From the NCBI GenBank assembly GCA_016871495.1, contig VHDF01000004.1:7174-71173 (forward strand): a DNA stretch of 64,000 nucleotides. The letters run 5' to 3'. Source of the stretch: Verrucomicrobiota bacterium. Lineage in GTDB: Bacteria > Verrucomicrobiota > Verrucomicrobiia > Limisphaerales > VHDF01. The stretch's first letter is position 1; each line of letters starts with the position of its first letter. Position numbers and translations under genes: made by a program. Shown here piece by piece: positions 19,800 through 62,513 of the stretch. The notes below the pieces were generated by a model. The model searched no databases, was not told the origin of the DNA, and saw only the letters and a list, made by a program, of their open reading frames with translations.

Positions 19800-20183
19800 T
19801 CAACCCGGCGGCGCCATCCGAAACTCCTCCACGACGCGTCCGCCCATCAAGTGCTCCTGGATGATGCGTTCCAGCACGTCCGGGGCGCAGGAATGATACC
19901 AAACCCGGTCGGGATAAATCACTGCGATCGGCCCCCGCACGCATAGCCTCAGGCAGTTTGCCTTCGTTCGCAGCACCGAACCCTTCGTCCCCGCCAAGCC
20001 CAGTTCCTTCAGGCGCCGCTTGAGAAACTCCCACGATTCCAGTCCCCTTTCCTTCGCACAGCACTTGGGCTCGGTCTGATCCGCGCACAGAAAGATATGC
20101 CGGGTGGCCCCGAAAAGGCCCACCGATTCCGCCGCGGTCGCAAGCGCCTCATCCATCGCTTCCTCACGAAAGGTTGACCACAT
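19800..20183 (-). CDS. thioredoxin-like [2Fe-2S] ferredoxin domain protein
   Basis: [14 protein letters not shown]...[23 protein letters not shown] pattern (COG3411-like). The alternative start at 20156 (MDEAL) would avoid the overlap with the upstream gene. Confidence 0.7.
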
Positions 20184-21141: not shown

Positions 21142-21936
21142 CTAGTACTTGGCCGCTTCCTTGTTTCCGCCCCGGCCAAGATGGTTGAGAATTTCGCGCG
21201 ATTTGGACAGCAAGAACCCGGCCTCGCTCGCCACGGCGACAAATCGAAAACCTTGCTCCAGCCGACGCTTCGCCGACGCGGCGTCCGCCACATGAATGCC
21301 CGGGGCAATGCCCCGTTTCCGGCACACCTCCAGCACTTTCTCCAGCGCGCTGACAAAGCGTGGATCGTCGCTCTCGAAGGAAGGGGGCCTCCCCATCGAG
21401 TTGTGCAGATCGTTGGGCCCGATAAACAATACATCAATGCCCGGCACCCCGGCGATCGCCTCCAGATTCGCCACCGCATCGATATGCTCGACCATCAACA
21501 CGACCAGAATCTCCTCATTGGCTCTCGCATAATAGGTCGCCGCGTCCGTGTCGAAATTGGTCGCATGAAGCAGTCCACCGATGGAACGTCGCCCCAACGG
21601 AGCGTAACGGGCCGCCGCCACCGCGTCCTCAGCCTCCGCTTTGGAATTCACCATTGGCACCACCACCCCCCAGGCTCCCGTGTCCAGAACACGCTTGATG
21701 TTTTCCCCGGTATTCCAGGGCACCCTCGTCAGGGGCACGCATCCCGCACCCGCCAGGATGGCGTAGCTCTGCGCCGCGCTCTCAAACGAGGTCGGACTGT
21801 GCTCCAGCTCAATCGTCAGCCAATCGAACCCCGTCCGCGCCATCAAACTCGCCACCAAGGGATCCGGCAACGTCAGCCAAGTCCCCACACAAGATTCGCC
21901 TTGGGCCAGGCGGGATCGCACCGTGTTCTTTTTCAT
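21142..21936 (-). CDS. HpcH/HpaI family 2-keto-3-deoxy-acid aldolase
   Basis: MKKNTVRSRLAQGESCVGTWLTLPDPLVASLMARTGFDWLTIELEHSP. Start taken at ATG 21936. Confidence 0.85.
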   Translation of the reverse strand: MKKNTVRSRLAQGESCVGTWLTLPDPLVASLMARTGFDWLTIELEHSPTSFESAAQSYAILAGAGCVPLTRVPWNTGENIKRVLDTGAWGVVVPMVNSKAEAEDAVAAARYAPLGRRSIGGLLHATNFDTDAATYYARANEEILVVLMVEHIDAVANLEAIAGVPGIDVLFIGPNDLHNSMGRPPSFESDDPRFVSALEKVLEVCRKRGIAPGIHVADAASAKRRLEQGFRFVAVASEAGFLLSKSREILNHLGRGGNKEAAKY

Positions 21937-21949
21937 GAGGATCGAAAAT

Positions 21950-22951
21950 CTATTGGACCTTGGCGCGCAACTTGGGGCTGCGATACACAGCCTCATCCAC
22001 GACCCAGCGCGGACGCCTTCCCTGCATTGCGTTCACGATGGCTTCCGCGGCGGCCATGCTGACTTTTTCGCCCGTTTCTCGCGTGAACGAGGCTTGATGC
22101 GGCGTGAGCAACAAACGCGGAGTGGAGCGGAGCGGATGGTCCGCCGGAAGCGGCTCGACGGCGAAGGCGTCCACCGCCGCCCCCGCGAGGACTCCTTCCT
22201 GGAGCACTTTGACCAAGGCCGCCTCGTCCACCAGCGCTCCCCGGGCGGTGTTGATCAAGTAGGCGGTGGACTTCATTTTCCTCAAGCGAGTCTCGTTGAG
22301 CAGGCCACGGTTGTCGGGCGTCAACGAGGCGTGGAGGCTGACGAAATCGCTTTGCTCCAGCAGCGTGTCGAGATCCACAAAACGAATGCCCAACTTTTCC
22401 GCCTCGGCATTCGGCGCGATGTCGTAGGCCAGGATCCGCATGTCGAAACCTCGCGCCCGTTTGGCCATGGCTTGCCCGATGCGGCCGCAGCCGATCAAAC
22501 CCAGGCTCTTGCCATGCACGTCGTGACCCCAGGCCGATTTCCACAAACCCTGCTTCATCGACTCGTGGCCCTCGGCCAAACGGCGGGCGACTCCGAGCAG
22601 GAGAGAAAAGGCGTAGTCCGCGACGGCGTCATTGAGGAGTCCGGGAGTATAAGCCACCATGATCCCCTGCTCCGTGGCGGCCGGGACATCAATGGCGTCG
22701 TAACCCACACCCCAACGCGAAATCATTTTCAGCGAGGCCGCCTCGGGAGCACGCAGCAACTCGGCTTTAAAGTGGTCCATGCTGGCCAAAACCGCGTCCA
22801 CGCCGGGTAATTGCGGCAACAGTTCGGGCACGGTCAGCGGACCGAGCTTGGGCGGGACGAGGACTTCGGCGCCCGATGCTTTGAGGAACTTGGTGGCCGC
22901 CTCGCCTACTTCACGGAAAGTGCGTGCGGTGATAAGAATTCGCCAGGACAC
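21950..22951 (-). CDS. D-isomer-specific 2-hydroxyacid dehydrogenase (phosphoglycerate dehydrogenase-like)
   Basis: GLIGCGRIGQAMAKRARGFDMRILAYD NAD motif. Probable GTG start at 22951; the 5' extension in the track is R/P/G-rich and unconvincing. Confidence 0.8.
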   Translation of the reverse strand: MSWRILITARTFREVGEAATKFLKASGAEVLVPPKLGPLTVPELLPQLPGVDAVLASMDHFKAELLRAPEAASLKMISRWGVGYDAIDVPAATEQGIMVAYTPGLLNDAVADYAFSLLLGVARRLAEGHESMKQGLWKSAWGHDVHGKSLGLIGCGRIGQAMAKRARGFDMRILAYDIAPNAEAEKLGIRFVDLDTLLEQSDFVSLHASLTPDNRGLLNETRLRKMKSTAYLINTARGALVDEAALVKVLQEGVLAGAAVDAFAVEPLPADHPLRSTPRLLLTPHQASFTRETGEKVSMAAAEAIVNAMQGRRPRWVVDEAVYRSPKLRAKVQ

Positions 22952-23604
22952 GGGCGCCAAGTCTAAAACCCGTCGCGCAAATAGCAAGATGGGGAAAGTG
23001 CCGGGTGTGAATGGAAGGGGCGGGCGCGGAGCACGGCCAGGTGCCAGACCACCAGCCGCAGCCAGGTTCGAACTTCGAGACGCAAGGGATTCCTCAGTCG
23101 AGCCCGCGTCGACGAAGCCGCTGCGACTGATCCCGCCGGGCGGGACACAATCGCGCCCCATCGAAGGGCCAAGGCGGGATCGTCAGCCACTTCCGATCAC
23201 ACCCAAGCGCCCGGAAAACCACGGAGGACGAATAATTCATCGACCGAATGGAGAATCCCGGTTCTCGAATCACTTCATGTGGACGGTCAGGCCCGGCCAT
23301 GGTCCTTTCTCCCGACCACCCAAGCCAGTTCGGGCCAGGTTCGTTGTCTACGCCGTCCGGACAAGATCCACCCCAGAAACGTTGAACGAACGAGCCCTTC
23401 GTAGGTGGCCAAGCAGATCGCGATCGCACCCCACGCCAACGATGACATCGCGCGGCATTTCTTGGCCGACACGCTCTCGGGAGACGGTCAAAAGACTCTC
23501 ATCAGCCTCATTTCCTTGTTCAGCCTCGCGGTGATCGCGGTCTATTCGCGCGCGGTTCGAAAGAGGATCGGACGCGTATCCCCGCGTCCCGACGGACAGG
23601 AGCG

Positions 23605-43911: not shown

Positions 43912-45009
43912 ATGAACGACTCCGGACCGACGACTCCCCCGAAGGCTGCTTCTCGCCGGGGCACGGACTCGCGGGTCGCCAATCGATTCTCCCCTCTTCA
44001 TCTCGAACCGGATCCCGAAGCCGAATCCCCGCCTGACGCCCCAGCCACTCAGTTTCTGCCAGACCACTCGGCCACGGTCATCAGCCGCAACGACAGCCCC
44101 GACCTCGGTTTCGAGGTCAGCTTGAATCCCTATCGCGGCTGCGAGCATGGATGCGCCTACTGTTACGCGCGGCCCACCCATGAGTATCTGGGCTTTTCCG
44201 CCGGACTCGATTTCGAGTCGAAAATCATGTTCAAGCCGCGCGCTCCGGAGTTGCTGGCTCGCGAACTGTGCGCGCCAGGCTGGCAGCCCAAGTGGATGGC
44301 GTTGAGCGGGGTCACCGACCCTTACCAACCGGTGGAGAGCCGGATGACCATCACTCGCCGCTGTTTGGAAGTGCTGGCGGAATTCCGGCAACCCGTCACC
44401 ATTGTGACCAAAAACCAACTGGTCGCGCGGGACATCGACCTCTTGGCAATACTCGCGGAATACCACGCCATTTCGGTTTATGTCAGCATCACCACCCTCG
44501 ACCCCGGACTTCGCTCGCGGCTCGAACCTCGCACTTCGCCGCCCGCAGGACGACTGGCGGCCATCCGCGCGCTTCGCAAGGCAGGCATTCCCGTCGGGGT
44601 GCTGACCGCTCCCATCATCCCCGGATTGAACGACTCCGAAATCCCCGCCATCCTCAACGCGGCGGCCGAAGCCGGCGCTTCCTTCGCATCCTACACCCTC
44701 CTCCGCCTCCCCCTCGCGGTGAAACCCATTTTTCTCGAATGGCTCGACCGCGCGGCGCCTCTCGGAAAGAACAAGATTCTGGCCAACCTCCGCGATGTCC
44801 GCGATGGACACTTGAATTCCAGCGAGTTTGGAGAACGCATGCGAGGAACAGGTCCCGCCGCACAACGCCTCCGCGACTGGTTCCGCATCTCGCGGACTCG
44901 CTCGGGACTTGCCCCTCGCGGACCCGAACTCTCCTCCGCATCCTTTCAGGTCCCTCCGCGAGTGCTCAAATCGCTCCGGGAATCCAAAGGCCAGTTGGAA
45001 CTTTTCTAG
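43912..45009 (+). CDS. PA0069-family radical SAM protein
   Basis: 365 aa. NPYRGCEHGCAYCYARPTHEYLG (CxxxCxxC cluster) in the family-typical context. Confidence 0.88.
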   Translation: MNDSGPTTPPKAASRRGTDSRVANRFSPLHLEPDPEAESPPDAPATQFLPDHSATVISRNDSPDLGFEVSLNPYRGCEHGCAYCYARPTHEYLGFSAGLDFESKIMFKPRAPELLARELCAPGWQPKWMALSGVTDPYQPVESRMTITRRCLEVLAEFRQPVTIVTKNQLVARDIDLLAILAEYHAISVYVSITTLDPGLRSRLEPRTSPPAGRLAAIRALRKAGIPVGVLTAPIIPGLNDSEIPAILNAAAEAGASFASYTLLRLPLAVKPIFLEWLDRAAPLGKNKILANLRDVRDGHLNSSEFGERMRGTGPAAQRLRDWFRISRTRSGLAPRGPELSSASFQVPPRVLKSLRESKGQLELF

Positions 45010-45017
45010 GACTCATC

Positions 45018-45857
45018 GTGCGCCTCTTCGACGCCCACAATCACCTCCAGGACGATCGACTGGCGCCCCATCGTGACGCCATCATTCGCGAAACACGCGC
45101 CGCCGGAGTTCAAGCCATGGTGGTCAATGGTTCATGCGAGAAAGATTGGCCGCTCGTCGCCCGCTTGGCCCAAGAGAATTCGGGATGGGTTCTCCCGTCG
45201 TTTGGATATCATCCGTGGTCCATCCACGAGAGAACTCCGGAATGGAAGGCCGTGCTCCAGCAGCAACTGGAGTCCACGCCTGGAGGAATCGGCGAAATCG
45301 GACTGGATCGCTGGAAAACCGGGCTCGACTATGCCGGACAAGAACCGGTCTTCCTTGAACAACTGGCGCTCGCCGCCGACCGCGAACTGCCGGCTTCCAT
45401 CCATTGTCTTCAAGCCTGGGGACGACTGCTGGAACTCTTGCGGCAGGGCCCGGTCCCGCGACCGGGATTTCTCCTCCATTCCTATGGAGGACCGGTGGAA
45501 ATGATTCCCGCCCTCGTCAAACTGGGAGCTTACTTTTCGTTTCCCGGCTACTTCATGCACGAACGCAAAGCGCGGCAGCGGGCGGCATTTCAAGTCGTGC
45601 CTGCGGACCGGTTATTGATCGAAACGGATGCGCCAGACCAGCCGTTGCCTGAGGATCGAATTCGATTCCGCCTGGAACCCGTCGCGGGTGGGCGAACTCC
45701 CAATCATCCGGCGAACTTGGCGGCGGTGGCGGAGTTCCTCGCGGGGTGGCTGGGCCAGGATCTCGCGATTCTTTGCTCGCAACTTGAAGAGAATTTCTGT
45801 CGATTGTTCGGAACGCTTTTCAAAAGTCATCCACCAAGGATCGAACGGGTGGAGTGA
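45018..45857 (+). CDS. TatD-family metal-dependent hydrolase
   Basis: GTG start at 45018 (VRLFDAHNHLQDD); GEIGLD, SIHC, LHSYGG and ETDAPD motifs. The track's 529-aa version overlaps the radical SAM gene and is rejected. Confidence 0.88.
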   Translation: MRLFDAHNHLQDDRLAPHRDAIIRETRAAGVQAMVVNGSCEKDWPLVARLAQENSGWVLPSFGYHPWSIHERTPEWKAVLQQQLESTPGGIGEIGLDRWKTGLDYAGQEPVFLEQLALAADRELPASIHCLQAWGRLLELLRQGPVPRPGFLLHSYGGPVEMIPALVKLGAYFSFPGYFMHERKARQRAAFQVVPADRLLIETDAPDQPLPEDRIRFRLEPVAGGRTPNHPANLAAVAEFLAGWLGQDLAILCSQLEENFCRLFGTLFKSHPPRIERVE

Positions 45858-48185: not shown

Positions 48186-49598
48186 TTGGGCATGATGACC
48201 GGCATGATCCGCGATTCCGATTCCTCCCGACGAAGTTTCATTCAACGCGTCAGCGCAGCATCCGCCGCATCGATCATCCCGTCACCCGCGTGGAGCGGGT
48301 CCAAGCCCGGCTTCCGCATCGCGCCCTTCCGCTTCCCGGTGACGCCTCCCGTGGGACACCCGCTTTGCGGTGGCTGGATTGCCCCGGTGGCAGCCATCGA
48401 GGACGATCTGGAAGCGGTGGGATTCGTTCTCCTCGGCGCATCGGACCCCATTGTCGTGTGTGCGGTGGACTGGACCGGTTTGCTTAACGACGCGTATCAG
48501 GTCTGGAGGTCTGCATTGGCAGAGGCGGCTGGCACCACGCCGGACCGGGTAGCGGTCCAGTGTGTGCATCAACACGACGCGCCTTTCGTCTGCCTGGCCG
48601 GGCAGAGGTTGCTCGATGAAGCCCGCAGCGGGCTGAGCGTCGTCGCTCTCGATTTTTTTCACCGGTGTCTATCCGCGGGTCGTGCCGCGGTACGCGAGGC
48701 GTTGCCCAAAGCCCGCCCCGTGACGCACGTGGGATTCGGATCCGCGGTGGTGGACCGCATCGCGAGCAACCGTAGGGTCGATCAAGGTCCCGATGGCAAA
48801 GTTCGCAAAATGCGAGGCAGCTCCTGCCGCGATGCGGACTTGATCGCCATGCCTGAAGGCCTGATAGATCCCCTCTTGAGGACGGTCGCGTTTTTCGAGG
48901 AAGACCGAAAGATCGCGGCGTGCCATTATTACGCGACCCATCCGATGAGCCATTATGGGCAGGGCCGAGTCAGTTCGGATTTTGCCGGGCTCGCCCGCAA
49001 GCGACTGCAAGCGGAGGAACCTGACTGCCACCACATCTACTTCACGGGGTGTGCCGGCAATCTGGCGGCCGGGAAATACAACGACGGCTCGCCCGCCGCG
49101 CGAATTCAGCTCACTCAGCGACTGTTCGAGGCCTTGAAATCCTCGCAGTCGGCCATGCCACGAAGCCCGCTCGATCGAGTGCGCTGGCGCACCCATCGGT
49201 TCCGCCCTGAAGCTCCGCCTCAGCCCGCCATGGACGAACTCCGTGCCATCGTCCGGAAGACCGATGCTTCCCGGGTGGACCGCATCCGTTCCGCCATGCG
49301 GCTCGCCTACACGGAGCGGTTGCGAAATCACGCACCGATCCTGCTCACCGCCTTGGAACTCAATGAAGGCTCCATCCTTCACCTGCCTTCCGAATGTTTC
49401 GTCGAGTATCAACTTCGCGCCCAATCGATGCGCCGGGGCCAATTCGTCGCCTCGGCAGCCTACGGTGATGGAGGCCCCTGGTATATTCCCACCCGTGACG
49501 AATATCCTCGCGGCGGTTATGAAGTTTCCATGGCTTTCAGCGCCGACAGCATTGATGCCCTGCTGACGGCCGGAATCAAGGATCTGCTGAGCACCTGA
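48186..49598 (+). CDS. Tat-signal hypothetical protein (distant neutral-ceramidase-like layout)
   Basis: 470 aa. SSRRSFIQRVSAASAASIIP Tat-like leader. The C-terminal block LHLPSECFVEYQL...YGDGGPWYIPTRDEYPRGGYE parallels the partial ORF at 63637-64000. Confidence 0.75.
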   Translation: MGMMTGMIRDSDSSRRSFIQRVSAASAASIIPSPAWSGSKPGFRIAPFRFPVTPPVGHPLCGGWIAPVAAIEDDLEAVGFVLLGASDPIVVCAVDWTGLLNDAYQVWRSALAEAAGTTPDRVAVQCVHQHDAPFVCLAGQRLLDEARSGLSVVALDFFHRCLSAGRAAVREALPKARPVTHVGFGSAVVDRIASNRRVDQGPDGKVRKMRGSSCRDADLIAMPEGLIDPLLRTVAFFEEDRKIAACHYYATHPMSHYGQGRVSSDFAGLARKRLQAEEPDCHHIYFTGCAGNLAAGKYNDGSPAARIQLTQRLFEALKSSQSAMPRSPLDRVRWRTHRFRPEAPPQPAMDELRAIVRKTDASRVDRIRSAMRLAYTERLRNHAPILLTALELNEGSILHLPSECFVEYQLRAQSMRRGQFVASAAYGDGGPWYIPTRDEYPRGGYEVSMAFSADSIDALLTAGIKDLLST

Positions 49599-49669: not shown

Positions 49670-50704
49670 TTGGCTATGCACTCGACACGACTTGCCTCCC
49701 GTCTTTTCCTCCTGCTCTCGGGCCTCCTGACACTGATCCAACCGCAAGCCGCCGAGAAGTTCGAGTCGGTGCTGACTCCCGATCCGTTGATGGGCAACTA
49801 CGAAGGCACCTGGACGGCGCCGGACGGCAAATTCAAACTCAGCGCCCAGGTGCGATCGCTGGGATCAGGACAATACGACGGCTTCCTGCTCCTCATCCGT
49901 GACAAAAACCATGTCGCCGCGGTGCAACTGAAGTCGGGCGGTGCCAACGAATCCGGGGCTGTGAAAATTTCCGGCCTGTCGCTGCCGGCAAAACCCGGCG
50001 GCGAGTTGCAGCCCAAGGTAACCGTGGAAGCCCGCCTCCGAGACGGAATCTTCGAAGGCACGTTCTCGGGCGACTTGGGACAGGGCCATTTTCGCGGAGA
50101 CAAAATCGTCCGGCAACCGGACAGCTTGGGAGCCAGGCCGCCTTCGGACGCGATTGTCTTGTTCGACGGCAAGGACACCAGCAGGTTTACCAATTTCAAC
50201 TGGAAGGTCCTGGGGGACGGAGCCATGGAAGTCGGGGGCAACAACATTGTGACTTCCGAGAAATTGGGGAGTTTCAAGCTTCACCTGGAATTCAAGACGC
50301 CGTTCATGCCCAAAGCCCGCGGCCAGGCCCGCGGTAACAGCGGAGTGTATCTCCAATCCATTTACGAAGTGCAGGTGCTCGACTCTTTCGGTTTGCTGCC
50401 TTTGCAAATCAACGACTGCAGCAGCATCTATGGAGTGAAAGCGGCCAGCGGCAATGCCTGTTTGCCCCCTTTGCAATGGCAGACATATGACATCACCTTT
50501 CGCGAAGGCAAAGCGGGAGCTCCGCCTGCCATCACCGTCGTTCACAACGGTGTGACCGTTGTCGATCAAGCCCCGGTACCCTCCCAACTCGTGGGCAAGG
50601 GCGGCGGTGGAGGCATCCCCCACGGCGGCTTCTTGATGCTCCAGAATCACGGTGATCCCGTACAATACCGTAACATCTGGGCAGTACGGCTCGGGGATCT
50701 GTAA
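49670..50704 (+). CDS. DUF1080 (3-keto-disaccharide-hydrolase-like) domain protein, secreted
   Basis: 344 aa. Signal peptide; the C-terminal half FDGKDTSRFTNFNWKV...FKLHLEFK...GNSGVYLQSIYEVQVLDS matches DUF1080. Confidence 0.85.
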   Translation: MAMHSTRLASRLFLLLSGLLTLIQPQAAEKFESVLTPDPLMGNYEGTWTAPDGKFKLSAQVRSLGSGQYDGFLLLIRDKNHVAAVQLKSGGANESGAVKISGLSLPAKPGGELQPKVTVEARLRDGIFEGTFSGDLGQGHFRGDKIVRQPDSLGARPPSDAIVLFDGKDTSRFTNFNWKVLGDGAMEVGGNNIVTSEKLGSFKLHLEFKTPFMPKARGQARGNSGVYLQSIYEVQVLDSFGLLPLQINDCSSIYGVKAASGNACLPPLQWQTYDITFREGKAGAPPAITVVHNGVTVVDQAPVPSQLVGKGGGGGIPHGGFLMLQNHGDPVQYRNIWAVRLGDL

Positions 50705-50773: not shown

Positions 50774-53311
50774 ATGGTCAGGAATTTTGTTCACGCGTCG
50801 CGGAGGCGGTCCGCCTCGCAATTCCTCTGGTTCGTCGGCCTGGTGTTCGCCGTGGCACCCTTGCTGAGAGCCCAGTTCTCAGCGCTTCCCTTGCGTGTTT
50901 TCTCCGAAAACGTGCAGATGGGCGCCGAACCCCGCACCACGTTGGTCCTCGGCCGCGACGGCATGCTTTACGGAGCCACCCTGCTGGCGGGTGGCACGCT
51001 CAAAGGCACGCTTTTTCGCATGCGGACGGACGGAGGCGATTATCGTATCCTTCACCGATTCACCTCGACCGAGCCGGATCTTGGCTCGAGTCCCTACGGG
51101 CGGCTGCTCGAAGCCGGGGACGGGCATTTCTACGGCACCACCTACGAGGGAGGGCCCGCTAATCGTGGTGTCATTTATCGACTGGAACGCGGGACCTGGG
51201 TTTTCACCGTCTTGCACGCTTTCACGGGCGGAACCAACGACGCCGCCAAACCCTACGGAGGTTTGGTCGAGGGCAGTGACGGCGCACTCTACGGGACCAC
51301 ATTCCTGGGTGGCGCGTCCAACCGAGGATCCTTTTTCAGGATTCGCAAGGACGGCACGGGCTTCGCGGCGCTCAAGCATTTCAGCGATGCGCCGGGCGAC
51401 GCGTCGCAGCCCACATCGACATTGCTCAAGGGTTCCGACGGGCGATTCTACGGCACTTCCTATCTTGGCGGCGCGTCCAGCATTGGAACGGTGTTCCGCA
51501 TCCAAGAGGATGGTTCGGGCTTCACTCTTCTGCAAAGTTTCACCGGACAAGGCGGGGATGGATCCTATCCGTTCGGCGGCTTGATCGAAGGGGTCGATGG
51601 ATTGCTCTACGGCACGACCTCCGCGGGCGGCCAGAGTCAGTTTGGAACCCTTTTCAAGCTGGGAAAGGATGGTTCCGGCTACACCTTGTTGCATCGCTTC
51701 AACACTCTGGAGGCGGGTGGACATCAGCCCTACGGCGAGCTCTTCCAGGCCAGGAGCGGATTGTTGTATGGCACCACTGCGTTCGGGGGGACCAACGATC
51801 AAGGGACGGTGTTTCAAATTGCCACCAACGGCACTTCTTACATCATTCACCGGCGCTTTCAGGGCGGACTCGCTGATGGCGCCGTTTCTTACGCGGGGCT
51901 GGCGCAAGATGCAGACGGATGGTTGCACGGCGTCGCCGTGACCGGAGGATCCGTCGACTCGGGCCTGGCGTTTCGAATGCGGCCTGATGGTTCGGGTTAT
52001 TCGATCTCGCATCAATTCGCCGGCACCGAGGGGGAAGCAGCGAGCCCCTACACCGCCCTGATCGAGGGGCGGGACGGAATCCTTTACGGAACGACCTTCC
52101 AAGGCGGCCACACCAATTTGGGCACCATTTTCCGAGTCAATCGAGACGGTGGAGATTACCGCATCTTGCACAGCTTCAGCGGTCCGGATGGGTCACAGCC
52201 CTACGCTGGGGTCATCGAAACCCGGGACGGATTCCTGTTCGGTGCCGCCGGGGGCGGAGGTCAGCGCAACGCGGGAACCCTTTTTCGACTCCACAAGGAT
52301 GGATCGGGATTCGCGGTCTTGAAACATTTCGAGGGCACCGTCCAGGACGGCATGATCCCTTTCGGGCGGTTGCTCGAAGCCGACGACGGCATGATCTATG
52401 GCACCACCTCGGGCGACGTGGGCACTGCAAACTACGGCACTTTGTTCAGGCTGCGCCCGGACGGTTCAGCCTACCAGGTATTGCGAACGTTCTCCGGCAC
52501 CGGAGGCGGCGGAACACAGCCGTTCGGCGGTCTCGTGCAGGGACCAGGCGGCTGGCTCTATGGCACCACCGCCTACCGGGATGCCACCAATAACGGGACG
52601 ATCTTTCGTGTAGGCAAAGACGGATCCGGCTTCAGCACCCTTCATGCCTTTGGAGATCGTCCGGAGGATGGAACCTTTCCGTTCCACGGACTCACTCTGG
52701 CTTCCGACGGCTTCCTCTATGGCACCACGTTTTCGGGAGGTTTGACCCAGCACGGCACGATTTTTCGGATCCGCCCCAGCAGCGACAATTACGAAGTGCT
52801 GCACCGCTTCCGCGGGGGGCCGGTCGATGGATCACTCCCCTCTGCGAACGCAGGCTTGGTCGAGGGCAAGGATGGGGCGCTCTACGGAGTGACTTACAGC
52901 GGAGGAGTATCCAATCTCGGAACCGTTTACCGCCTGGCCAAGGGCGGTGGACCGGTGTCCATCCTTACGCATTTCACGGGCAACACGAGAGCCGGAGCTC
53001 AGCCCTATGGTGGGCTGACGATCGCTCGGGACGGTTTGATCTATGGCACGACGCATAGCGGCGCGGCCGGATGCGGAGCTTTGTTTGTGCTGGGGCCGGA
53101 AGCCACGCTGGCGTTTTCGCCACCGTCAAACGTCAGGTTGCTTGGACCGAACGGTCGGCGATTCTCCCTGCAGACCTCGGAAGATTTATCGAATCCGAAC
53201 GGTTGGCGCTCCCTGAGCGAACTCACCATCATTGAGGGAGTCGCCCTTTACTCGGACCCCGCGGCGAACGGTATCTCCCAGCGATTCTATCGCGCCGTGT
53301 GGAAACCGTGA
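50774..53311 (+). CDS. GloVer (Gloeobacter/Verrucomicrobia) tandem-repeat protein
   Basis: 845 aa. About 14 tandem ~47-aa units of the form LYGTT..GG...GT(I/L/V)FR...DGSG..(V/I)LH.F.G. Signal-like N-terminus. The tail ends QRFYRAVWKP. Confidence 0.88.
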   Translation: MVRNFVHASRRRSASQFLWFVGLVFAVAPLLRAQFSALPLRVFSENVQMGAEPRTTLVLGRDGMLYGATLLAGGTLKGTLFRMRTDGGDYRILHRFTSTEPDLGSSPYGRLLEAGDGHFYGTTYEGGPANRGVIYRLERGTWVFTVLHAFTGGTNDAAKPYGGLVEGSDGALYGTTFLGGASNRGSFFRIRKDGTGFAALKHFSDAPGDASQPTSTLLKGSDGRFYGTSYLGGASSIGTVFRIQEDGSGFTLLQSFTGQGGDGSYPFGGLIEGVDGLLYGTTSAGGQSQFGTLFKLGKDGSGYTLLHRFNTLEAGGHQPYGELFQARSGLLYGTTAFGGTNDQGTVFQIATNGTSYIIHRRFQGGLADGAVSYAGLAQDADGWLHGVAVTGGSVDSGLAFRMRPDGSGYSISHQFAGTEGEAASPYTALIEGRDGILYGTTFQGGHTNLGTIFRVNRDGGDYRILHSFSGPDGSQPYAGVIETRDGFLFGAAGGGGQRNAGTLFRLHKDGSGFAVLKHFEGTVQDGMIPFGRLLEADDGMIYGTTSGDVGTANYGTLFRLRPDGSAYQVLRTFSGTGGGGTQPFGGLVQGPGGWLYGTTAYRDATNNGTIFRVGKDGSGFSTLHAFGDRPEDGTFPFHGLTLASDGFLYGTTFSGGLTQHGTIFRIRPSSDNYEVLHRFRGGPVDGSLPSANAGLVEGKDGALYGVTYSGGVSNLGTVYRLAKGGGPVSILTHFTGNTRAGAQPYGGLTIARDGLIYGTTHSGAAGCGALFVLGPEATLAFSPPSNVRLLGPNGRRFSLQTSEDLSNPNGWRSLSELTIIEGVALYSDPAANGISQRFYRAVWKP

Positions 53312-55995: not shown

Positions 55996-57357
55996 TCAGC
56001 CTTTCATCGACGCCCCCACGAAGGTGTAATCGTAAGGTTTTCGCATCGCGCGCGCCATCCACACGTTGGATTCCTTGGCGCCCTCGCCCACAAACCGTTC
56101 CTTGCCGGGATCCCACTGCAGTTTCCGTCCTGAACGCAAAGCGATGACGATCAAGTGTCCGACCACCGCCGACCGATGTCCCGCCTCGACCGATGCAATC
56201 GGTGTCTTGCGAGAGCGAACGCACTCGAAGAAATTGGCCATGTGATCCTGGCTGATTTCCAGCCGAGCCGCCGTGCTCGGCAACGGGGTCTCGATGATCT
56301 CGTCCCGGCTCGCTCGTAAATCCGAACGATTCACCCAAATCCAACCGTCGGTGCCGACGAATCTCAGACCGTTGCGCTGTCCATCGGGCTTGATGATGCC
56401 GCCAAAAGGCGTGTCATCAGGCGTCGTCCTCACCATTTGAGTAACCCCATGGGCCCAGCCCAAGGTGGCTTCGAATTCCGTCGGAGTGGTGTAGCCCGAC
56501 GGCAGGGACGGAGTCGTCACGCGCGCTTCGATGCTGAGCGGACCGTCCTGACCAATCGCCCAGAGCGCAATGTCATTGTGATGCGCGCCCCAATCCGTGA
56601 CGGGTCCACCCGCGTAATCCCACCACCAGCGAAAGGTGCTATGGCAGCGTTCTTTGAAGTAAGGGGCCTGCGGAGCCTGCCCCAGCCAAAAGTCGTAATT
56701 GAAATGGGCCGGCGGGGTCTGCTGAACAAAGGGACCCGCGCGAATTCCGGCGGGGACAAAGACATGAACCTCCTTCAACCTGCCCAGTCGGCCATTCCTG
56801 ACCAACTCGCAAGCGAGCCGGAACTTCTTGTCGCTCCGCTGTTGAGTGCCGGTTTGAAAGACCACGCCGTTTCGTCGAACGGCACGGACCAGCCGCTTTC
56901 CTTCGTCGATGGTCAAGGTCAGGGGCTTTTCTCCATAAACATCTTTCTTGGCAAGTGCGCCGCCCAAATTGACCAGGGTGTGCCAATGATCGGGGGTGGC
57001 CTGCACCACGATATGAATGTCGTCGCGCTCCAACGCCTTCCGGAAATCCTCGTAGAGGGCGGGTTTCTTCCCATCGACCGCGAACGGTTTCGCCGCCGCT
57101 TCCGCGTGCTCGCGGTCCACATCACAAATCGCGAGGATTTCGCCGAAACGACTCGCGTTCTTGGCGTCCGCCCGCCCCATGCCTCCACACCCCACCACGG
57201 CAATGCCTGGACGGTCGTTGGGTGAGAGTCGGCGTGGAGCGGGGGCCGCCGCCAGGTCCTGCTCAATAAACCAGCGAGGCAGCCCGGTCGCCGCCGAAAC
57301 CGCGGCGCAGGTGGAGAAAAATCGACGGCGCGAAATCTGAAAGGGCGTTTGCATCAA
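55996..57357 (-). CDS. Gfo/Idh/MocA-family oxidoreductase with Tat signal
   Basis: 453 aa. ISRRRFFSTCAAVSAATGLP leader; Rossmann motif GIAVVGCGGMGRADA. Confidence 0.9.
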   Translation of the reverse strand: MMQTPFQISRRRFFSTCAAVSAATGLPRWFIEQDLAAAPAPRRLSPNDRPGIAVVGCGGMGRADAKNASRFGEILAICDVDREHAEAAAKPFAVDGKKPALYEDFRKALERDDIHIVVQATPDHWHTLVNLGGALAKKDVYGEKPLTLTIDEGKRLVRAVRRNGVVFQTGTQQRSDKKFRLACELVRNGRLGRLKEVHVFVPAGIRAGPFVQQTPPAHFNYDFWLGQAPQAPYFKERCHSTFRWWWDYAGGPVTDWGAHHNDIALWAIGQDGPLSIEARVTTPSLPSGYTTPTEFEATLGWAHGVTQMVRTTPDDTPFGGIIKPDGQRNGLRFVGTDGWIWVNRSDLRASRDEIIETPLPSTAARLEISQDHMANFFECVRSRKTPIASVEAGHRSAVVGHLIVIALRSGRKLQWDPGKERFVGEGAKESNVWMARAMRKPYDYTFVGASMKG

Positions 57358-57544
57358 CGAAGCAAACGCCGGTGAGCCTTCGCGGTCAAGCGCCGGACGG
57401 CACGTTCAACGGCGGCGGCGAATCCGTGCCTGTGCTAATCCAAGCTCCGAGGCCGATTCACGCCTCCACCAGAACATCATCCCCACCAGCGCCAATCCCC
57501 CAACCCAGCCGGAATGGCCGTCCGGCACCGACGCGGGCGATGCC

Positions 57545-58294
57545 TCAAGTCGGAACATGGTCGAAATCAACTTCGATGTCCGAAGCCGGATGAAGCGGGT
57601 CAATCTGATTAAGATTCACCAGCCGAATGCCCAGGTGTTGCCCCGCCAGCACGGTCGTTCCAGTCGTAAAAGAGACCGTGCTCGTTCGCCACTGTCCGTT
57701 GGGAATCGCCCCGGCCAAACTGTTGTTGTCGGAGGCCAATACCGTTCCTCCCGCCATGAGATCCACCCGATAACCCGGGAAACCTTCCAGGTTGAAAAAC
57801 ACTCCGGTACGCGATCTGGCCGAGTCGATATTCCCAATCTCGACCTGAAGGGTATAGGTCGTTTCCGGCTCCAACATGCTGGCCAGCGTCTGGACGAATC
57901 CATACTCTGATTGGCCGCCGGTGGAGGCAAAATTGAACGCGATGCCTACCCGCTGGCCATGCGCCGCGCCATGATCGAACCCCTCATATACCCCCGGGTT
58001 TCCGATGGGATCCAGTTCTGGAAACAGGGTCCCAATGTAGTAATTGGGTCCATCGCCAGAACTCGTGATATTGGCCGGGTCGTAAAGATTCCACCCGTTG
58101 AGCGCGCCAAAGGTGAATTCGTGAATGACGAACTCGCCGGAGATATCCTCAAAACTTGGATTCACCACTGGAACAGAGGCCCCCAACAGCGCGCTCGCGC
58201 CCAGGGGCAGCAAACTCGCGATCAGAAACCGGTGATGGGTCAATTTCTTGGAGCTGGAAGCACAGCGATTCATAGCGACTCGGCTCTGAAGCAT
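57545..58294 (-). CDS. secreted protein; probable frameshifted VPDSG/PEP-CTERM-type cargo
   Basis: 249 aa. Signal peptide; the VVNPSFEDISGEF opening common in exosortase cargo. A sorting-signal-like tail is encoded just downstream in another frame (see findings). Confidence 0.7.
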   Translation of the reverse strand: MLQSRVAMNRCASSSKKLTHHRFLIASLLPLGASALLGASVPVVNPSFEDISGEFVIHEFTFGALNGWNLYDPANITSSGDGPNYYIGTLFPELDPIGNPGVYEGFDHGAAHGQRVGIAFNFASTGGQSEYGFVQTLASMLEPETTYTLQVEIGNIDSARSRTGVFFNLEGFPGYRVDLMAGGTVLASDNNSLAGAIPNGQWRTSTVSFTTGTTVLAGQHLGIRLVNLNQIDPLHPASDIEVDFDHVPT

Positions 58295-58443
58295 CTGTCA
58301 TGCCGAACCTCGCTCGCCACCACGCTACCGTGAGGCCAGCTTGGCCAACCCTGTGGAATTGGTTTCCTCACCAGCCATGCTCATTTTGGGGAGCGCGGCT
58401 GTGTCGAAGACCAGCCGCAGCGCGCGGACAGATCGGAAGATTC

Positions 58444-58509
58444 CAGATTTTTCAACGTGCTGCGGCTGGTCGAAAGACGACCAGCCGCGCTCCGGGGCAA
58501 AATGAGAAC
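58444..58509 (+). repeat. short repeat family E, copy E2 (perfect 11-bp-stem hairpin)
   Basis: cagatttttcaacgtgctgcggctggtcgaaagacgaccagccgcgctccggggcaaaatgagaac. The stem is gcggctggtcg / cgaccagccgc. Confidence 0.65.
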
Positions 58510-58579
58510 TCCTGTTTCTGCACAGTAACTCATTGAATCCTAATCCCCACAATGCCACCTTCCAACGCATCCCGATGCT

Positions 58580-59740
58580 ATGAAATGCCGAATTCTCCTG
58601 GCCCTAGGGGCCTTCTGCGGCTGCGTGATTCTCAGAGGTCAGATCATGATTTCTGCGAATGAGAACAAAATCGACTTGACCAGCGGCGGACCGAAAGTGG
58701 TCCATAATCCGCGTCCCGACTCGCTCACCTTTCTCGATTTCTCGGTTTTCCCTCCCCGCGTGCAACATCTCGAAGGGGTCGAGAACTCGGTCCTGGGCCC
58801 GCCGTCCAATGTCGCCATCAGCCCTGACGGACGCCTCGCCCTCATCGCCAATTCGATCCGTGTCCCCTTCCCCGGAGCGACGAATTGGGTCCCCGAAAAC
58901 TCCATCCATATCCTCGATTTGACGTCGCGCCCCCCTGCCCTCGCCGGCCGCGTCAACGTCGAGGCCCAGCCTTCAGGCATCTCGTTTACTCCGAACGGAC
59001 GCCAGGCCCTGGTGGCCAATCGCGCCGCCGGCACGGTCTCGCTCCTCCATGTGGACGGCCTCAAAGTTCGCCATGAGGGTTCCGTCAAAGTCTGCGAGCC
59101 CATCGAAGCGGTTTCGGACGTGGCCGTGAGTCCCGACGGACGTCTCGCCCTGGCGAGCGCGCAAAAAGGAGGCTTCCTGGCGGTGCTGCGAATCGAACCC
59201 GGTCATCTGCATTTCACCGGACGAAAAATTTCGGTCAGCGGCCAACCCTACCGGTGCCTCATCACCCCGGATGGACAACTGGGATTGGTAGCCGGAGGAG
59301 GAGCAGGCAATGCTCGCGACTTGGACGCGTTGAGCATCGTGGATCTCACCGGCGCCTCACCGCAAACCGTGGCTTATGTGCCTTTGGGGGCTTCCCCGGA
59401 GTCCATTGAGTTGAGTCCGGACGGAAAACACCTGGCCGCGGTGGTCATGGACGGTTCGAACCTGGCGCCGGGCGATCCGCACAAAACGAAGCAGGGCCAG
59501 CTCGTCATGCTCAGGCGGAAAAGCCAGCGGTTCGTCGAAACGCAACGAGTCCCGATCGTCCCGATTCCGGAAGGGGTGGCCTTCACAGCGGACGGCAGAT
59601 TCTTGGTGGTGCAAGGCCACCCTGACCGCGTCTTGCAGGTATTCGCCGTCAAATCCGGGCGCGTCTCGGATACCGGCCATCGTATTCCCGTTCCGGGCAT
59701 GCCTTCCGCGTTGCGCGCGTGGGTGCCCGCTCGGAGATAA
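58580..59740 (+). CDS. secreted beta-propeller protein (YVTN / 7-bladed lactonase-like)
   Basis: 386 aa. Signal peptide; recurring blades V(A/E)(I/V/L)SPDG(R/K)xL(A/L), e.g. VAISPDGRLALIANS, VAVSPDGRLALASA, IELSPDGKHLAAV. Confidence 0.8.
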   Translation: MKCRILLALGAFCGCVILRGQIMISANENKIDLTSGGPKVVHNPRPDSLTFLDFSVFPPRVQHLEGVENSVLGPPSNVAISPDGRLALIANSIRVPFPGATNWVPENSIHILDLTSRPPALAGRVNVEAQPSGISFTPNGRQALVANRAAGTVSLLHVDGLKVRHEGSVKVCEPIEAVSDVAVSPDGRLALASAQKGGFLAVLRIEPGHLHFTGRKISVSGQPYRCLITPDGQLGLVAGGGAGNARDLDALSIVDLTGASPQTVAYVPLGASPESIELSPDGKHLAAVVMDGSNLAPGDPHKTKQGQLVMLRRKSQRFVETQRVPIVPIPEGVAFTADGRFLVVQGHPDRVLQVFAVKSGRVSDTGHRIPVPGMPSALRAWVPARR

Positions 59741-59873
59741 GCACACATCGGGAACCCATGCGTGCGACACCTCAGTCCGGCGCCATCCGTCGCAGCCAGC
59801 TGATCTGGATTTCCGCGGGTTGTGAATCACCACGCGTAAGATCGACCGTCCCAAGAGCAGACTCAGAAACGAA

Positions 59874-61199
59874 ATGGATCCCAGGATGAAAACCGCCCCT
59901 CCCTCAACCCATTGTGACGACACCCGTCGTGGACGTCGTACTTTTCTCAAGCAGGCCTTTATGGCGGCGGGACTCGCCGCGATAAGCCAACCCACAGGCC
60001 AGGCCCAAACTCGGTCTCAGTCCGCCCCCCCGAAGGATCCCTATGCCGGAGGGCCAAGGATCACCCAAGGCCAGCCTCCGCGGCTCAAAACGAAATTGAG
60101 GATTACCAAGCTCGAAACGTTTCTGGTCAAGCCGCGCTGGCTCTTCCTGAAGATCCACACCGACGCCGGCATCGTGGGGCTGGGCGAGCCCATCACGGAA
60201 GGGCGAGCGCGCACCTGCGCGATGGCCGTGGAGGAAGCCTCGCACTACTTGATCGGCAAGGATCCCCGCAACGTCATTCACCACTGGCAGGCAATTTACC
60301 GGCATGCCTTCTATCGCGGCGGCCCCATCCTTACGAGCGCGCTCAGCGGCATCGAACAGGCCCTTTGGGATATCAAAGGGAAATTCATGGGGGTGCCGGT
60401 TTACGAACTCCTGGGTGGCCCCACGCGGGACCGAGTCCGTGTTTATGCCCATGCCGGCAGCCCGCAATCGTTGAAAACGCGGAAGGCCGAGGGGTTCACC
60501 GCCTTCAAAACCGGGATCAAAAACTCGACCCGCTCGGGCATCGTCACCCACCCGCGCTTCATCGAGGAAGCTTCCCAGGCATTCGGCGAATTGCGCGAGG
60601 CGGGAGGGAAGGATGTGGACATCGGGATCGACTTCCATGGCGCCATCAGCCCGCAGAATGCCAAGCTCCTCATCAAGGCCCTGGAACCGATGCAGCCGAT
60701 GTTTATCGAGGAACCCGTGCAATGCCAAAATGTCGATGCCATGGCCGACATCGCCCGCGGAACTCACCTCCCGATCGCCACCGGAGAGCGCATTTTCACG
60801 AAATGGGGATTCCGCGAAATCTTGGAGAAACAAGCGGCGTCCATCTTGCAGCCCGATCTCTGCCACGCCGGGGGGATCTTCGAAGGCCGCCTGATCGCCG
60901 GCATGGCGGAGGCCTACTACGCCGCCATCGCACCCCATAATCCCCTGGGCCCCATCTCCCTTGCCTGCGGACTTCAACTGGCCGCATCCGTCCCCAATTT
61001 CCTTTGCCAGGAGCAGGTTTCGCTCGGCGAAGGCTACCTGAAGAAACCCTTCAAGATTGAAAAAGGGTTCGTCGAAATCCCCGAAGGACCCGGCCTAGGC
61101 ATCGAACTCGACGACAACCAAATTGAGGGCAAACTCAACCACGACTGGCGCAATCCGGAAACCTACGACCCTGCGGACGGCTCCGTCGTGGATTGGTGA
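59874..61199 (+). CDS. D-galactonate-dehydratase-like enolase-superfamily enzyme with N-terminal Tat signal extension
   Basis: Residues from about 73 onward align by recall with DgoD (RITKLETFLVKPRWLFLKIHTDAGIVGLGEPITEGRARTCAMAVEE...LWDIKGK...). The N-terminal 72 aa carry GRRTFLKQAFMAAGLAAISQPTGQAQ. An alternative TTG start sits at the DgoD-equivalent position. Confidence 0.88.
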   Translation: MDPRMKTAPPSTHCDDTRRGRRTFLKQAFMAAGLAAISQPTGQAQTRSQSAPPKDPYAGGPRITQGQPPRLKTKLRITKLETFLVKPRWLFLKIHTDAGIVGLGEPITEGRARTCAMAVEEASHYLIGKDPRNVIHHWQAIYRHAFYRGGPILTSALSGIEQALWDIKGKFMGVPVYELLGGPTRDRVRVYAHAGSPQSLKTRKAEGFTAFKTGIKNSTRSGIVTHPRFIEEASQAFGELREAGGKDVDIGIDFHGAISPQNAKLLIKALEPMQPMFIEEPVQCQNVDAMADIARGTHLPIATGERIFTKWGFREILEKQAASILQPDLCHAGGIFEGRLIAGMAEAYYAAIAPHNPLGPISLACGLQLAASVPNFLCQEQVSLGEGYLKKPFKIEKGFVEIPEGPGLGIELDDNQIEGKLNHDWRNPETYDPADGSVVDW

Positions 61200-61206
61200 C
61201 CCGCTT

Positions 61207-61422
61207 TCATCCTCCGGCCACAATTCTCACGATTTCCATCCGATCCCCGGACCCCAATGGGCGTTGAGCGAATTCAGAAGGAGAGACGGGCTCGCCATTG
61301 AGCTCCACCACCACGCTGCGCGGAAGCAGTGCCTGCTGCACCAGAAAATCGTGCAGAGTGCAGGGCAGGTTCACCTGTTTGCGCTGCCCGTTGGCGATGA
61401 CCCAGCCTTCCGTGGTTTCCAT
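61207..61422 (-). CDS. thiS: ThiS/MoaD-type sulfur-carrier protein
   Basis: METTEGWVIANGQRKQVNLPCTLHDFLVQQALLPRSVVVELNGEPVSPSEFAQRPLGSGDRMEIVRIVAGG. The length, the NGE...GD..EIV pattern and the terminal GG match ThiS. Alternative start at 61437. Confidence 0.85.
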   Translation of the reverse strand: METTEGWVIANGQRKQVNLPCTLHDFLVQQALLPRSVVVELNGEPVSPSEFAQRPLGSGDRMEIVRIVAGG

Positions 61423-61454
61423 TGGCCGTTCGTCCATGAGGGTTGGATCGAGGT

Positions 61455-62513
61455 TCACCTCGCGCTGACGTGCGGAGCGCCCAGCGTTCGCCAGCGTTGA
61501 ACCTCGTCCCACCGGTTCAGTCGGCACCGAAAAAAACGCAAAAGCCAGCAGTCGGATCGAACTCGCATCCCGGCTAACCTTCGCCTCGCCTCCCACACGT
61601 GGCGCCAGTGTTTCACGGCGTCAAGCAACGCGTCCCCATAGGCCTTCTTGAGAAACGAAGTCCTTCGAATCAACAGGCATCCCGCCAGCGCTTCCAAGGC
61701 CAGCCCCAGGCATTGCACCGGCACGAACCAGAGCCACAGCCATTCCGTGTTTTTCGCCATGACCCAGAGTCCGTTCCGATTGGCGAAATAACGCTTCGTG
61801 TCGCTGGTGCGGAACTCGACGACGTTGCCGCCCCCGGCCGGATTCACATCGACCGCCCCTCGATGATGCATGCGGGCCGAGGGCGCGGCGATCGCCCGCC
61901 CACCCGCCACCCACAGCCGCATCGTCAAATCCAGCTCATCCGAGTACATGAAAAAGAGCTCATCGAACCCGCCCAGGCGCTCGAACCAATCCCTTCGTAT
62001 GAGATAGCCGCACCCCTCCGGCATCAACACCTCCCGCACAGCTTCATGTTCCTCTCGCGTGCTCACCCAGCCAAACACGTCGAACCCCGCCGCGCCCAGG
62101 GATTGAAACCGGTCGTCGTGATAATCGAGCACTTTGGGCATCGCCGCCTGCGCCCGAAAGCGCTCCGCCTCTCCCACCAGCCGTTCCAGGCATTCCGGCT
62201 CCAGCCAGGCGTCATGATTCAAAAAGAAGAGCCATTCGCCTCGGGCAACCGCCGCCGCCCGATTGTTGCCCGCACAGAATCCCACATTGCCCCCCATTCG
62301 CATGAATCGCGATGATTTCCAACCCGAGACCCATCGTTCACACATCAGGTCCGAACCATCCGCGCTGGCATTGTCCGCGACGATCAACTCAACGCGACCG
62401 GCGCACGTTTGCGCTCTCACCGAGTCGAGGCACCTGTCGATCCACGCCCGCCCGTTGTAGTTCAGAACCACCACGCTGACCCAGGGTCGTGCCTGAACGG
62501 TTTCCTCGTTCAC
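61455..62513 (-). CDS. family 2 glycosyltransferase
   Basis: WVSVVVLNYNGRAWIDRCLDSVRAQT...ELIVADNASADGS, the GT-A opening. Confidence 0.9.
   Translation of the reverse strand: MNEETVQARPWVSVVVLNYNGRAWIDRCLDSVRAQTCAGRVELIVADNASADGSDLMCERWVSGWKSSRFMRMGGNVGFCAGNNRAAAVARGEWLFFLNHDAWLEPECLERLVGEAERFRAQAAMPKVLDYHDDRFQSLGAAGFDVFGWVSTREEHEAVREVLMPEGCGYLIRRDWFERLGGFDELFFMYSDELDLTMRLWVAGGRAIAAPSARMHHRGAVDVNPAGGGNVVEFRTSDTKRYFANRNGLWVMAKNTEWLWLWFVPVQCLGLALEALAGCLLIRRTSFLKKAYGDALLDAVKHWRHVWEARRRLAGMRVRSDCWLLRFFRCRLNRWDEVQRWRTLGAPHVSAR

Follow-up and report, generated by a model that had tools for sequence, protein, structure and literature searches.

We analyzed a 64,000-nucleotide stretch (hereafter, the window) of the genome of a Verrucomicrobiota bacterium (VHDF01; assembly GCA_016871495.1, contig VHDF01000004.1, positions 7,174-71,173 of the forward strand) and found that it encodes, on the plus strand, a predicted beta-propeller protein (G3) followed by a homolog of the D-galactonate dehydratase DgoD (G4) that carries a twin-arginine leader conserved among its relatives. 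The interpretation that we favor, and consider probable, is that G4 is a DgoD-branch dehydratase exported to the periplasm through twin-arginine translocation (Tat) and fed by G3, and that its product is imported and then cleaved in the cytoplasm. The two genes, which are separated by a gap of 133-145 nucleotides, and the parts of the G4 precursor are the following (pLDDT, predicted local distance difference test).

58580-59740, plus strand: G3, secreted 7-bladed YVTN/Pgl-type beta-propeller, putative periplasmic aldonolactonase (386 amino acids; PF10282, predicted structure)
59874-61199, plus strand: G4, DgoD-like enolase-superfamily acid-sugar dehydratase precursor (open reading frame of 441 amino acids; NF010624, 3RR1)
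59886-60008, plus strand: predicted twin-arginine leader of G4, residues 5-45 (read from the sequence, with conservation in homologs and the structural model)
60009-60095, plus strand: P/Q/G-rich linker of G4, residues 46-74 (aligned leaders of nine related loci and 120 homologs; low pLDDT)
60096-61196, plus strand: catalytic core of G4, residues 75-441 (catalytic motifs; alignment with 3RR1; pLDDT mostly above 90)

As judged from its alignments, G4 belongs to the DgoD branch of the enolase superfamily, and its catalytic core is intact. Pfam profiles delineate a two-domain architecture, MR_MLE_N (PF02746, 77 bits) and MR_MLE_C (PF13378, 198 bits), and the curated NCBIfam equivalog model of galactonate dehydratase (NF010624) is matched with 442.5 bits, against a cut-off of 311, in an end-to-end alignment of residues 76-441 of G4 with positions 2-382 of the 382 in the model. 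The closest solved structure, PDB 3RR1 (355 bits), aligns with residues 75-441 over positions 2-383 of its chain. Both alignments put the beginning of the core at about residue 75, in agreement with an earlier sequence-only reading of this DNA, in which G4 was described as a DgoD homolog with a conserved core from about residue 73. The motifs DFHG (253), FIEEP (277), TGER (303), QPDLCHAGG (326), and APHNP (353) of G4 are all matched in the alignment by the same motifs of 3RR1, and they contain the predicted metal ligands D253, E279, and E305, as well as H255, D328, and H355, which we take to be the counterparts of the three residues that coordinate Mg2+ and of the acid-base His/Asp residues in DgoD (D183, E209, and E235, and H185, D258, and H285, respectively, in the numbering of the Escherichia coli enzyme). 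In the AlphaFold2 model, the barrel is predicted with confidence from residue 75 on. Homologs of G4 are plainly annotated as 'galactonate dehydratase' in public databases, and the substrate is most likely D-galactonate or one of its close analogs. Translation likely starts from the ATG at 59886 (MKTAPP...), yielding a protein of 437 amino acids, rather than from the beginning of the open reading frame at 59874, because the database protein P0001 (437 amino acids), which is identical to G4 from M5, starts there, and most of the homologs begin with MKT.

The core of G4 is preceded by DDTRRGRRTFLKQAFMAAGLAAISQPTGQAQ (in a fuller form, the leader reads MDPRMKTAPPSTHCDDTRRGRRTFLKQAFMAAGLAAISQPTGQAQ) and then by the P/Q/G-rich linker. 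The leader can be parsed into an n-region, the twin-arginine motif G20-R21-R22-T-F-L-K26, the h-region QAFMAAGLAAIS, and the c-region PTGQAQ. The consensus (S/T)RRxFLK motif, h-region, and AxA-like site that had been ascribed to it are recovered in part: RRxFLK occurs in the form GRRTFLK, with glycine instead of serine or threonine ahead of the arginine pair, and the hydrophobic stretch is present, whereas the c-region, with GQAQ, has no textbook AxA site. The linker holds a motif conserved in the clade, PY...QG(K/Q)PP(Q/R)(F/L)KTK. Residues 1-70 are disordered or of low confidence in the AlphaFold2 model, with a single short helix at residues 22-31 (pLDDT below 55); a low-confidence N-terminus with one helix at the h-region has the look of a signal peptide followed by a flexible linker.

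Conservation of the leader was assessed at several levels of relatedness. Among the 120 closest database proteins (72-100% identity to G4, mostly 420-445 amino acids), 113 contain RRxF[LIF] with an uncharged stretch after it, and the remaining seven are shorter gene calls that start within or past the leader (for example, P0002, 367 amino acids). In an alignment of 43 sequences, R21, R22, and F24 each reach at least 90% conservation, and the other leader residues vary freely. A scan of genomes, one per species, yielded 571 relatives; the leader was inspected in the best 80 of these (65-81% identity), nearly all of which have an in-frame upstream leader with the arginine pair. These 80 come from Verrucomicrobiota, Bacteroidota, Planctomycetota, Acidobacteriota, Chloroflexia, and Omnitrophota, and a leader-bearing ortholog is encoded by a cultured bacterium, Cyclobacterium xiamenense CGMCC 1.12432. 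Among 101 near full-length representatives selected at 50% identity, 83 have no N-terminal extension and 12 are extended by at least 25 residues; the arginine pair is present in all 12. When the leader is compared with those of nine related loci, codon differences number 36-47 at the third position versus 19-31 at positions 1 and 2, and 13-24 codons per pair differ only synonymously, a pattern which indicates that the leader is a translated, constrained sequence.

These comparisons bear directly on the possibility that the leader is an artifact of open reading frame extension and that translation from the internal TTG (L75) yields an ordinary cytoplasmic DgoD. Some gene callers did pick short starts, as in P0002, and GC content at third codon positions (GC3) is 0.60 in the leader against 0.77 in the core, a gap to which we attach no weight in either direction, given the abundance of Ala, Pro, Gly, and Gln in the leader. 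Nevertheless, with the leader motif recurring across six phyla, the arginine pair shared by every extended representative, and an excess of synonymous substitutions in the leader itself, we give this explanation almost no credence. Absence of the extension from all orthologs had been named beforehand as an observation that would speak against export; the extension is kept in 113 of the 120 homologs, in nearly all of the best 80 loci, and in the 12 extended representatives. The leader thus appears to be a family trait rather than an artifact, and an internal start is effectively excluded by these comparisons. In a rough neighbor-joining tree, the leader-bearing enzymes fall in about three clades, and the clade of G4 is monophyletic and lies apart from the leaderless DgoDs, to which its members are about 47-55% identical; this distribution suggests that export signals were gained repeatedly in this enzyme subgroup. 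Across these roughly three clades, leaders with the arginine pair occur in DgoD-like enzymes that are 36-72% identical to G4 (among P0121-P0270), for example, P0132, P0158, P0193, and P0201, as well as P0181, P0254, and P0266.

A different possibility is that the leader serves as an uncleaved membrane anchor or directs the protein to the general secretory (Sec) route, in which case the enzyme would stay attached to the membrane and not become a soluble periplasmic protein. The c-region of G4 without a clean AxA and the result obtained with the Pfam hidden Markov model TAT_signal (PF10518), which gave no match to the G4 leader at E-values up to 10 in a search with sensitivity limited by short-profile filters, are compatible with such an arrangement. 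However, AxA-type sites (AQA/A, ARA/AE, AAE, with the slash at the cleavage position) are common among the homologs, a conserved RRxF[LIF] is a feature particular to recognition by Tat (consensus SRRxFLK), and Mg-dependent oligomeric enzymes of the enolase superfamily would not readily refold after export through Sec. We consider an anchored or Sec-routed enzyme very improbable.

The propeller protein G3 begins with a Sec-type leader, MKCRILLALGAFCGCVIL, and matches the Lactonase family of Pfam (PF10282) with 45.9 bits (cut-off 21.7), in an alignment that covers only residues 75-159, equivalent to model positions 246-321. The AlphaFold2 model is a 7-bladed propeller (pLDDT 91, predicted template modeling score 0.90). 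Its best structural neighbors in a Foldseek search are Pgl-type 6-phosphogluconolactonases (3FGB, 6NAU, 1RI6, 3SCY, and 4QRJ), and PpgL (6IGB), a periplasmic gluconolactonase, ranks 11th; the TM-scores are 0.65-0.71. At the sequence level, all matches to solved structures are weak, the highest being the S-layer YVTN protein 1L0Q (56 bits) and the hydrazine synthase beta subunit (46 bits), with putative 6-phosphogluconolactonases scoring 21-30 bits and PpgL 19 bits. Orthologs of G3 (54-78% identity) are abundant and mostly named YncE-like. The earlier description of G3 as a signal-peptide propeller of the YVTN/lactonase type is borne out with respect to the signal peptide, the propeller fold, and the PF10282 match, and the putative lactonase role is compatible with the gene order as well as with the predicted fold and the Pfam match.

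A conserved gene neighborhood that links the two proteins became visible only when the search was started from homologs of the propeller, not from the neighbors of the dehydratase. In related Verrucomicrobia, the propeller gene is directly followed by a DgoD-like gene in L006 and by a ManD-like and then a DgoD-like gene in L007, L091, and L092; at the locus of P0371, the order is propeller, ManD-like, major facilitator superfamily (MFS) transporter, and DgoD-like; and in L089 (5426-13021, GCA_044229355.1 JBGATF010000004.1), it is AbfB-domain protein, propeller, ManD-like, TctC/B fusion, TctA, and DgoD-like. Locus L005 encodes ManD-like, TctC/B, TctA, and DgoD-like proteins without a propeller. 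The order of lactonase followed by dehydratase, which had been pointed out in the window, therefore recurs as a propeller upstream of one or more Tat-dehydratases in the window and in L006, L007, L089, L091, L092, and the P0371 locus. A leader with the arginine pair is present in the ManD-like partner, too; this enzyme is 28% identical to G4 and belongs to the ManD subgroup, although its scores against the ManD models NF043051 and NF011654 (408 and 396 bits) are below both curated cut-offs (550 and 430, respectively); a search of the window for a ManD-like paralog found none. Judged by gene content, the window holds a reduced two-gene form (G3 and G4) of a Verrucomicrobial cassette that consists of the propeller, the Tat-ManD-like enzyme, a transporter, and the Tat-DgoD-like enzyme.

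To cover a wider range of phyla, open reading frames from 85 loci were clustered and 108 immediate neighbors of the dehydratase were subjected to a Pfam census. No universal operon around the dehydratase emerged from these two data sets. The commonest immediate neighbor is TctA (5 of the 108 neighbors; 7 of the 85 loci), often directly upstream; a leaderless Eda-type KDPG/KHG aldolase is encoded immediately downstream in four Acidobacteria loci; and PfkB kinases are found near the dehydratase in two loci. This linkage to Eda-type aldolase, PfkB, and TctA points to a phosphorylative cytoplasmic lower pathway that follows import, rather than to a non-phosphorylative one of the HpcH type. Other neighbors include sulfatases (seven loci), DUF1501 proteins (seven loci), polysaccharide-lyase-type genes, and proteins with CBM9 and AbfB domains.

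Some of these neighbors, namely, the sulfatases, the polysaccharide-lyase-type genes, and the CBM9 and AbfB domains, would agree with an exported dehydratase that acts on another substrate, such as a different aldonate, a uronate-derived acid, or the oxidized end of an oligosaccharide, with the propeller as a binding partner or a partner with a different catalytic activity. The separation of the monophyletic G4 family from the leaderless DgoDs, at only about 47-55% identity, and the annotation of the propeller as YncE-like, with similarity to non-lactonase propellers equal to that to lactonases, are in line with this scenario as well. Conversely, G4 scores well above the curated cut-off of the galactonate dehydratase equivalog, retains the full set of catalytic motifs, and belongs to a family with recurrent linkage to the Eda aldolase, PfkB, and carboxylate transporters, and we regard a substrate of another kind as rather unlikely.

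Under the interpretation that we favor, the pathway would proceed as follows. The G4 precursor would fold and oligomerize with Mg2+ in the cytoplasm, and the GRRTFLK leader would target it to the Tat machinery, with release into the periplasm probably by cleavage near GQA/Q, at about residue 45. Periplasmic oxidation of sugars would produce aldonolactones, the candidate oxidizing enzymes in the window being the protein encoded at 11288-14977 and, possibly, the oxidoreductase G1 (both described below). G3 would hydrolyze these lactones in the periplasm, supplying G4 with aldonate, most probably D-galactonate, which G4 would dehydrate in the same compartment to a 2-keto-3-deoxy acid. This acid would then be imported, in related genomes by the TctCBA or MFS carrier of the cassette, phosphorylated by a PfkB-type kinase, and cleaved by an Eda-type aldolase in the cytoplasm.

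Several observations weigh against this scheme. With regard to export, the c-region of G4 departs from the textbook AxA, the TAT_signal profile gave no match, and GC3 drops in the leader. With regard to the substrate, the structure closest to G4, at about 55% identity, is that of an uncharacterized 'putative' DgoD, from which substrate specificity cannot be read. With regard to the lactonase step, G3 is weakly similar to proven lactonases (19-30 bits, 14-19% identity), on par with propellers of the 1L0Q YVTN type, and in the Foldseek comparison the non-enzymatic propeller 1L0Q scores comparably to the lactonases. With regard to the genomic context, the dehydratase gene usually stands alone among unrelated genes across phyla, and a propeller partner occurs only in Verrucomicrobial relatives (3 of the 85 cross-phylum loci). 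In one locus (L090:6001-9143), an ortholog of G3 is followed by a heparinase II/III-like gene, with no dehydratase there, so that the role of the propeller may be broader than supplying aldonate dehydratases. Finally, a transporter, a kinase, and an Eda aldolase were sought by annotating the rest of the window, and none was found.

In the sequence-only reading, G3 and G4 had been joined with two further genes into a single route of four adjacent genes. All four open reading frames were found where that reading had placed them, and all four proteins have export-type N-termini. The two additional genes and an associated element are the following.

55996-57357, minus strand: G1, Tat-leader Gfo/Idh/MocA oxidoreductase, probably outside the conserved cassette (453 amino acids; PF01408, PF19051)
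57545-58294, minus strand: G2, secreted protein with an HpiC1-like (CBM-like) domain, outside the cassette (249 amino acids; PF22825)
57406-57552, minus strand: PEP-CTERM-like sorting tail, lying in the +1 frame with respect to G2 (three-frame translation)

G1 and G2 are read from the minus strand and the other two genes, G3 and G4, from the plus strand, so that the genes form two divergent pairs rather than a single operon. A scan of 57300-61600 for sigma-70 promoters and intrinsic terminators detected no promoters, a result that says nothing on operon structure, and one minus-strand terminator-like site within G3, below the expectation from shuffled sequences.

G1 is a member of the Gfo/Idh/MocA family (PF01408, 61 bits; PF19051, 95 bits) with the N-terminus QISRRRFFSTCAAVSAATG, which scores 15.8 bits (E-value 0.014) against TAT_signal, below the cut-off of 22.7. 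Its best matches are of the glycoside/C-glycoside 3-dehydrogenase type, namely, 8TDF (101 bits), 8TDH (97 bits), and DgpA (64 bits), compared to 29.6 bits for the lactone-forming glucose-fructose oxidoreductase (GFOR) of Zymomonas. Against the model of the BT_2158 family (NF058561), G1 scores 132 bits, with a cut-off of 750 and only residues 9-282 aligned, and it is not a member of that family. Tat-Gfo/Idh/MocA paralogs are present in 4 of the 85 loci and are only 28-38% identical to G1. Such paralogs are very numerous in these phyla, and we regard the adjacency as chance for this reason. The proposal that G1 is the dehydrogenase of the pathway is thus at odds with its location on the opposite strand, its absence among the conserved neighbors of the dehydratase, and its greater similarity to glycoside 3-dehydrogenases than to GFOR.

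G2 contains an HpiC1-like domain (PF22825, 182 bits) behind a hydrophobic, signal-like N-terminal stretch and does not recur as a neighbor in either the clustering of the 85 loci or the census of 108 neighbors. It had been described as a secreted, exosortase-cargo-like protein; the signal-like N-terminus agrees with secretion, but there is no in-frame PEP-CTERM, the open reading frame ends with ...DFDHVPT, and there is no TIGR02595-type match. A PEP-CTERM-like tail, ASVPDGHSGWVGGLALVGMMFWWRRE...RRRR and a stop (VPDG-TM-RR), is located just past the stop codon of G2 in the +1 frame (57406-57552, minus strand), and pseudogenization or an assembly error probably put it out of frame by one nucleotide. 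A protein with a CBM-like HpiC1 domain and a frameshifted sorting tail was rejected as a pathway component.

A further element of that reading was an HpcH-type aldolase operon in the window that could take the product of the dehydratase. The HpcH/HpaI aldolase gene is real (21142-21996, minus strand), but it lies 38 kb away, in its own cluster between two genes for D-isomer 2-hydroxyacid dehydrogenases (20164-21126 and 21950-23161, minus strand), and the aldolases linked to the G4 family are Eda-type. The De Ley-Doudoroff gene set comprises galactose dehydrogenase, lactonase, DgoD, KDGal kinase, and KDPGal aldolase; of these, the window encodes a lactonase-like and a DgoD-like protein only. 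The complete four-gene route, in which G1 makes the lactone, G3 opens it, G4 dehydrates the product, and the HpcH aldolase cleaves it, with the four genes as one unit, would be consistent with the export-type N-termini of all four proteins, the existence of the aldolase gene, and the presence of Tat-Gfo/Idh/MocA paralogs near the dehydratase in three other loci. Nevertheless, the opposite orientation of G1 and G2, the far closer similarity of G1 to glycoside 3-dehydrogenases (101 and 132 bits) than to GFOR, the absence of orthologs of G1 among the neighboring paralogs, with 4 of 85 loci being about the level of chance, and the distance to the aldolase cluster make this route improbable.

Several other genes in the window deserve mention. 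The protein encoded at 11288-14977 (minus strand; 1,229 amino acids) combines a 3-keto-disaccharide hydrolase domain (DUF1080), a GDSL domain, a DUF7133 propeller, HEAT repeats, and a C-terminal cytochrome c; it is a putative periplasmic dehydrogenase of the type found in the Planctomycetota-Verrucomicrobiota-Chlamydiota (PVC) group and could be a supplier of oxidized sugars. A second Tat-like leader, SSRRSFIQRVSAASAASII, is present in a 470-amino-acid protein with no Pfam match (48186-49598, plus strand), which is followed by a DUF1080/3-keto-disaccharide hydrolase protein (49670-50704, plus strand) and an 845-amino-acid protein with no Pfam match (50774-53311, plus strand). In the open reading frame at 44268-45857 (plus strand; 529 amino acids), the TatD-family hydrolase domain spans only residues 254-515; the N-terminal 250 or so residues have no Pfam match, GC3 is low (0.57), and the start is perhaps miscalled. 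Two DUF1501 proteins and a PSCyt1/PSCyt2/PSD1 protein are encoded at 2550-4001 (plus strand), 6721-8211 (minus strand), and 8211-11138 (minus strand); such pairs of DUF1501 and PSCyt genes are a hallmark of Planctomycetota and Verrucomicrobiota, in keeping with nearest homologs that are Verrucomicrobial.

Compared to known systems, G4 shares the MR_MLE domains, the alignment over residues 75-441, and the catalytic motifs with DgoD (EC 4.2.1.6; 3RR1/3RRA, the putative DgoD of Ralstonia pickettii). Unlike canonical DgoDs (about 382 amino acids), G4 has an additional Tat leader and linker of about 70 residues and belongs to a clade of its own, and, in contrast to operons of the dgoRKADT type, its family is found next to a secreted propeller, an enzyme of the Tat-ManD-like type, and transporters of the TctCBA or MFS class. 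The periplasmic GFOR and gluconolactonase of Zymomonas mobilis, together with PpgL of Pseudomonas aeruginosa, are precedents for the oxidation of sugars and the hydrolysis of lactones in the periplasm; GFOR of Z. mobilis is a classic Tat substrate. G3 shares the predicted 7-bladed Pgl/PpgL-type fold but is distant from PpgL in sequence, and G1 shares the Gfo/Idh/MocA fold and the arginine-pair leader with GFOR but is likewise distant from it. In the GFOR and PpgL systems, the aldonate is imported and dehydration is cytoplasmic, whereas here the dehydratase itself bears the export signal. The best match for G1, with an alignment that includes the leader region, is the periplasmic glycoside 3-dehydrogenase pathway (BT_2158 family; 8TDF/8TDH; DgpA), and DUF1080/3-keto-disaccharide hydrolase domains are also present in the window; the only tie of this pathway to G3 and G4 is proximity.

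To our knowledge, the enolase-superfamily dehydratases of acid sugars are regarded as cytoplasmic enzymes, and metabolic reconstructions put aldonate dehydration after uptake. A full-text literature search, with most subscription papers outside its coverage, turned up no account of a galactonate or mannonate dehydratase exported by Tat, a weak negative. The findings suggest that an enzyme and an export signal, each of them known, occur in a very widespread and apparently undescribed combination with its own gene cassette. Tentatively, as a generalization that may well prove too broad, many of the Verrucomicrobiota, Planctomycetota, Acidobacteriota, and Bacteroidota that live in soil and water might run the upper part of De Ley-Doudoroff/Entner-Doudoroff-type aldose catabolism (oxidation, lactone hydrolysis, and dehydration) outside the cytoplasm through Tat-exported DgoD- and ManD-like dehydratases that acquired the leader on at least three occasions, and import 2-keto-3-deoxy-aldonates through TTT (tripartite tricarboxylate transporter) or MFS carriers instead of sugars or aldonates.

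The export hypothesis is directly testable in the cultured carrier, C. xiamenense. If the proposed pathway is correct, a committed step of sugar-acid catabolism moves to the periplasm, and the transported molecule is a keto-deoxy acid instead of an aldonate. The list of natural Tat cargoes would then gain a cofactor-light, Mg-dependent oligomer, and the orphan TctC-type binding proteins and 'YncE-like' propellers of abundant, poorly studied soil phyla would acquire a function.

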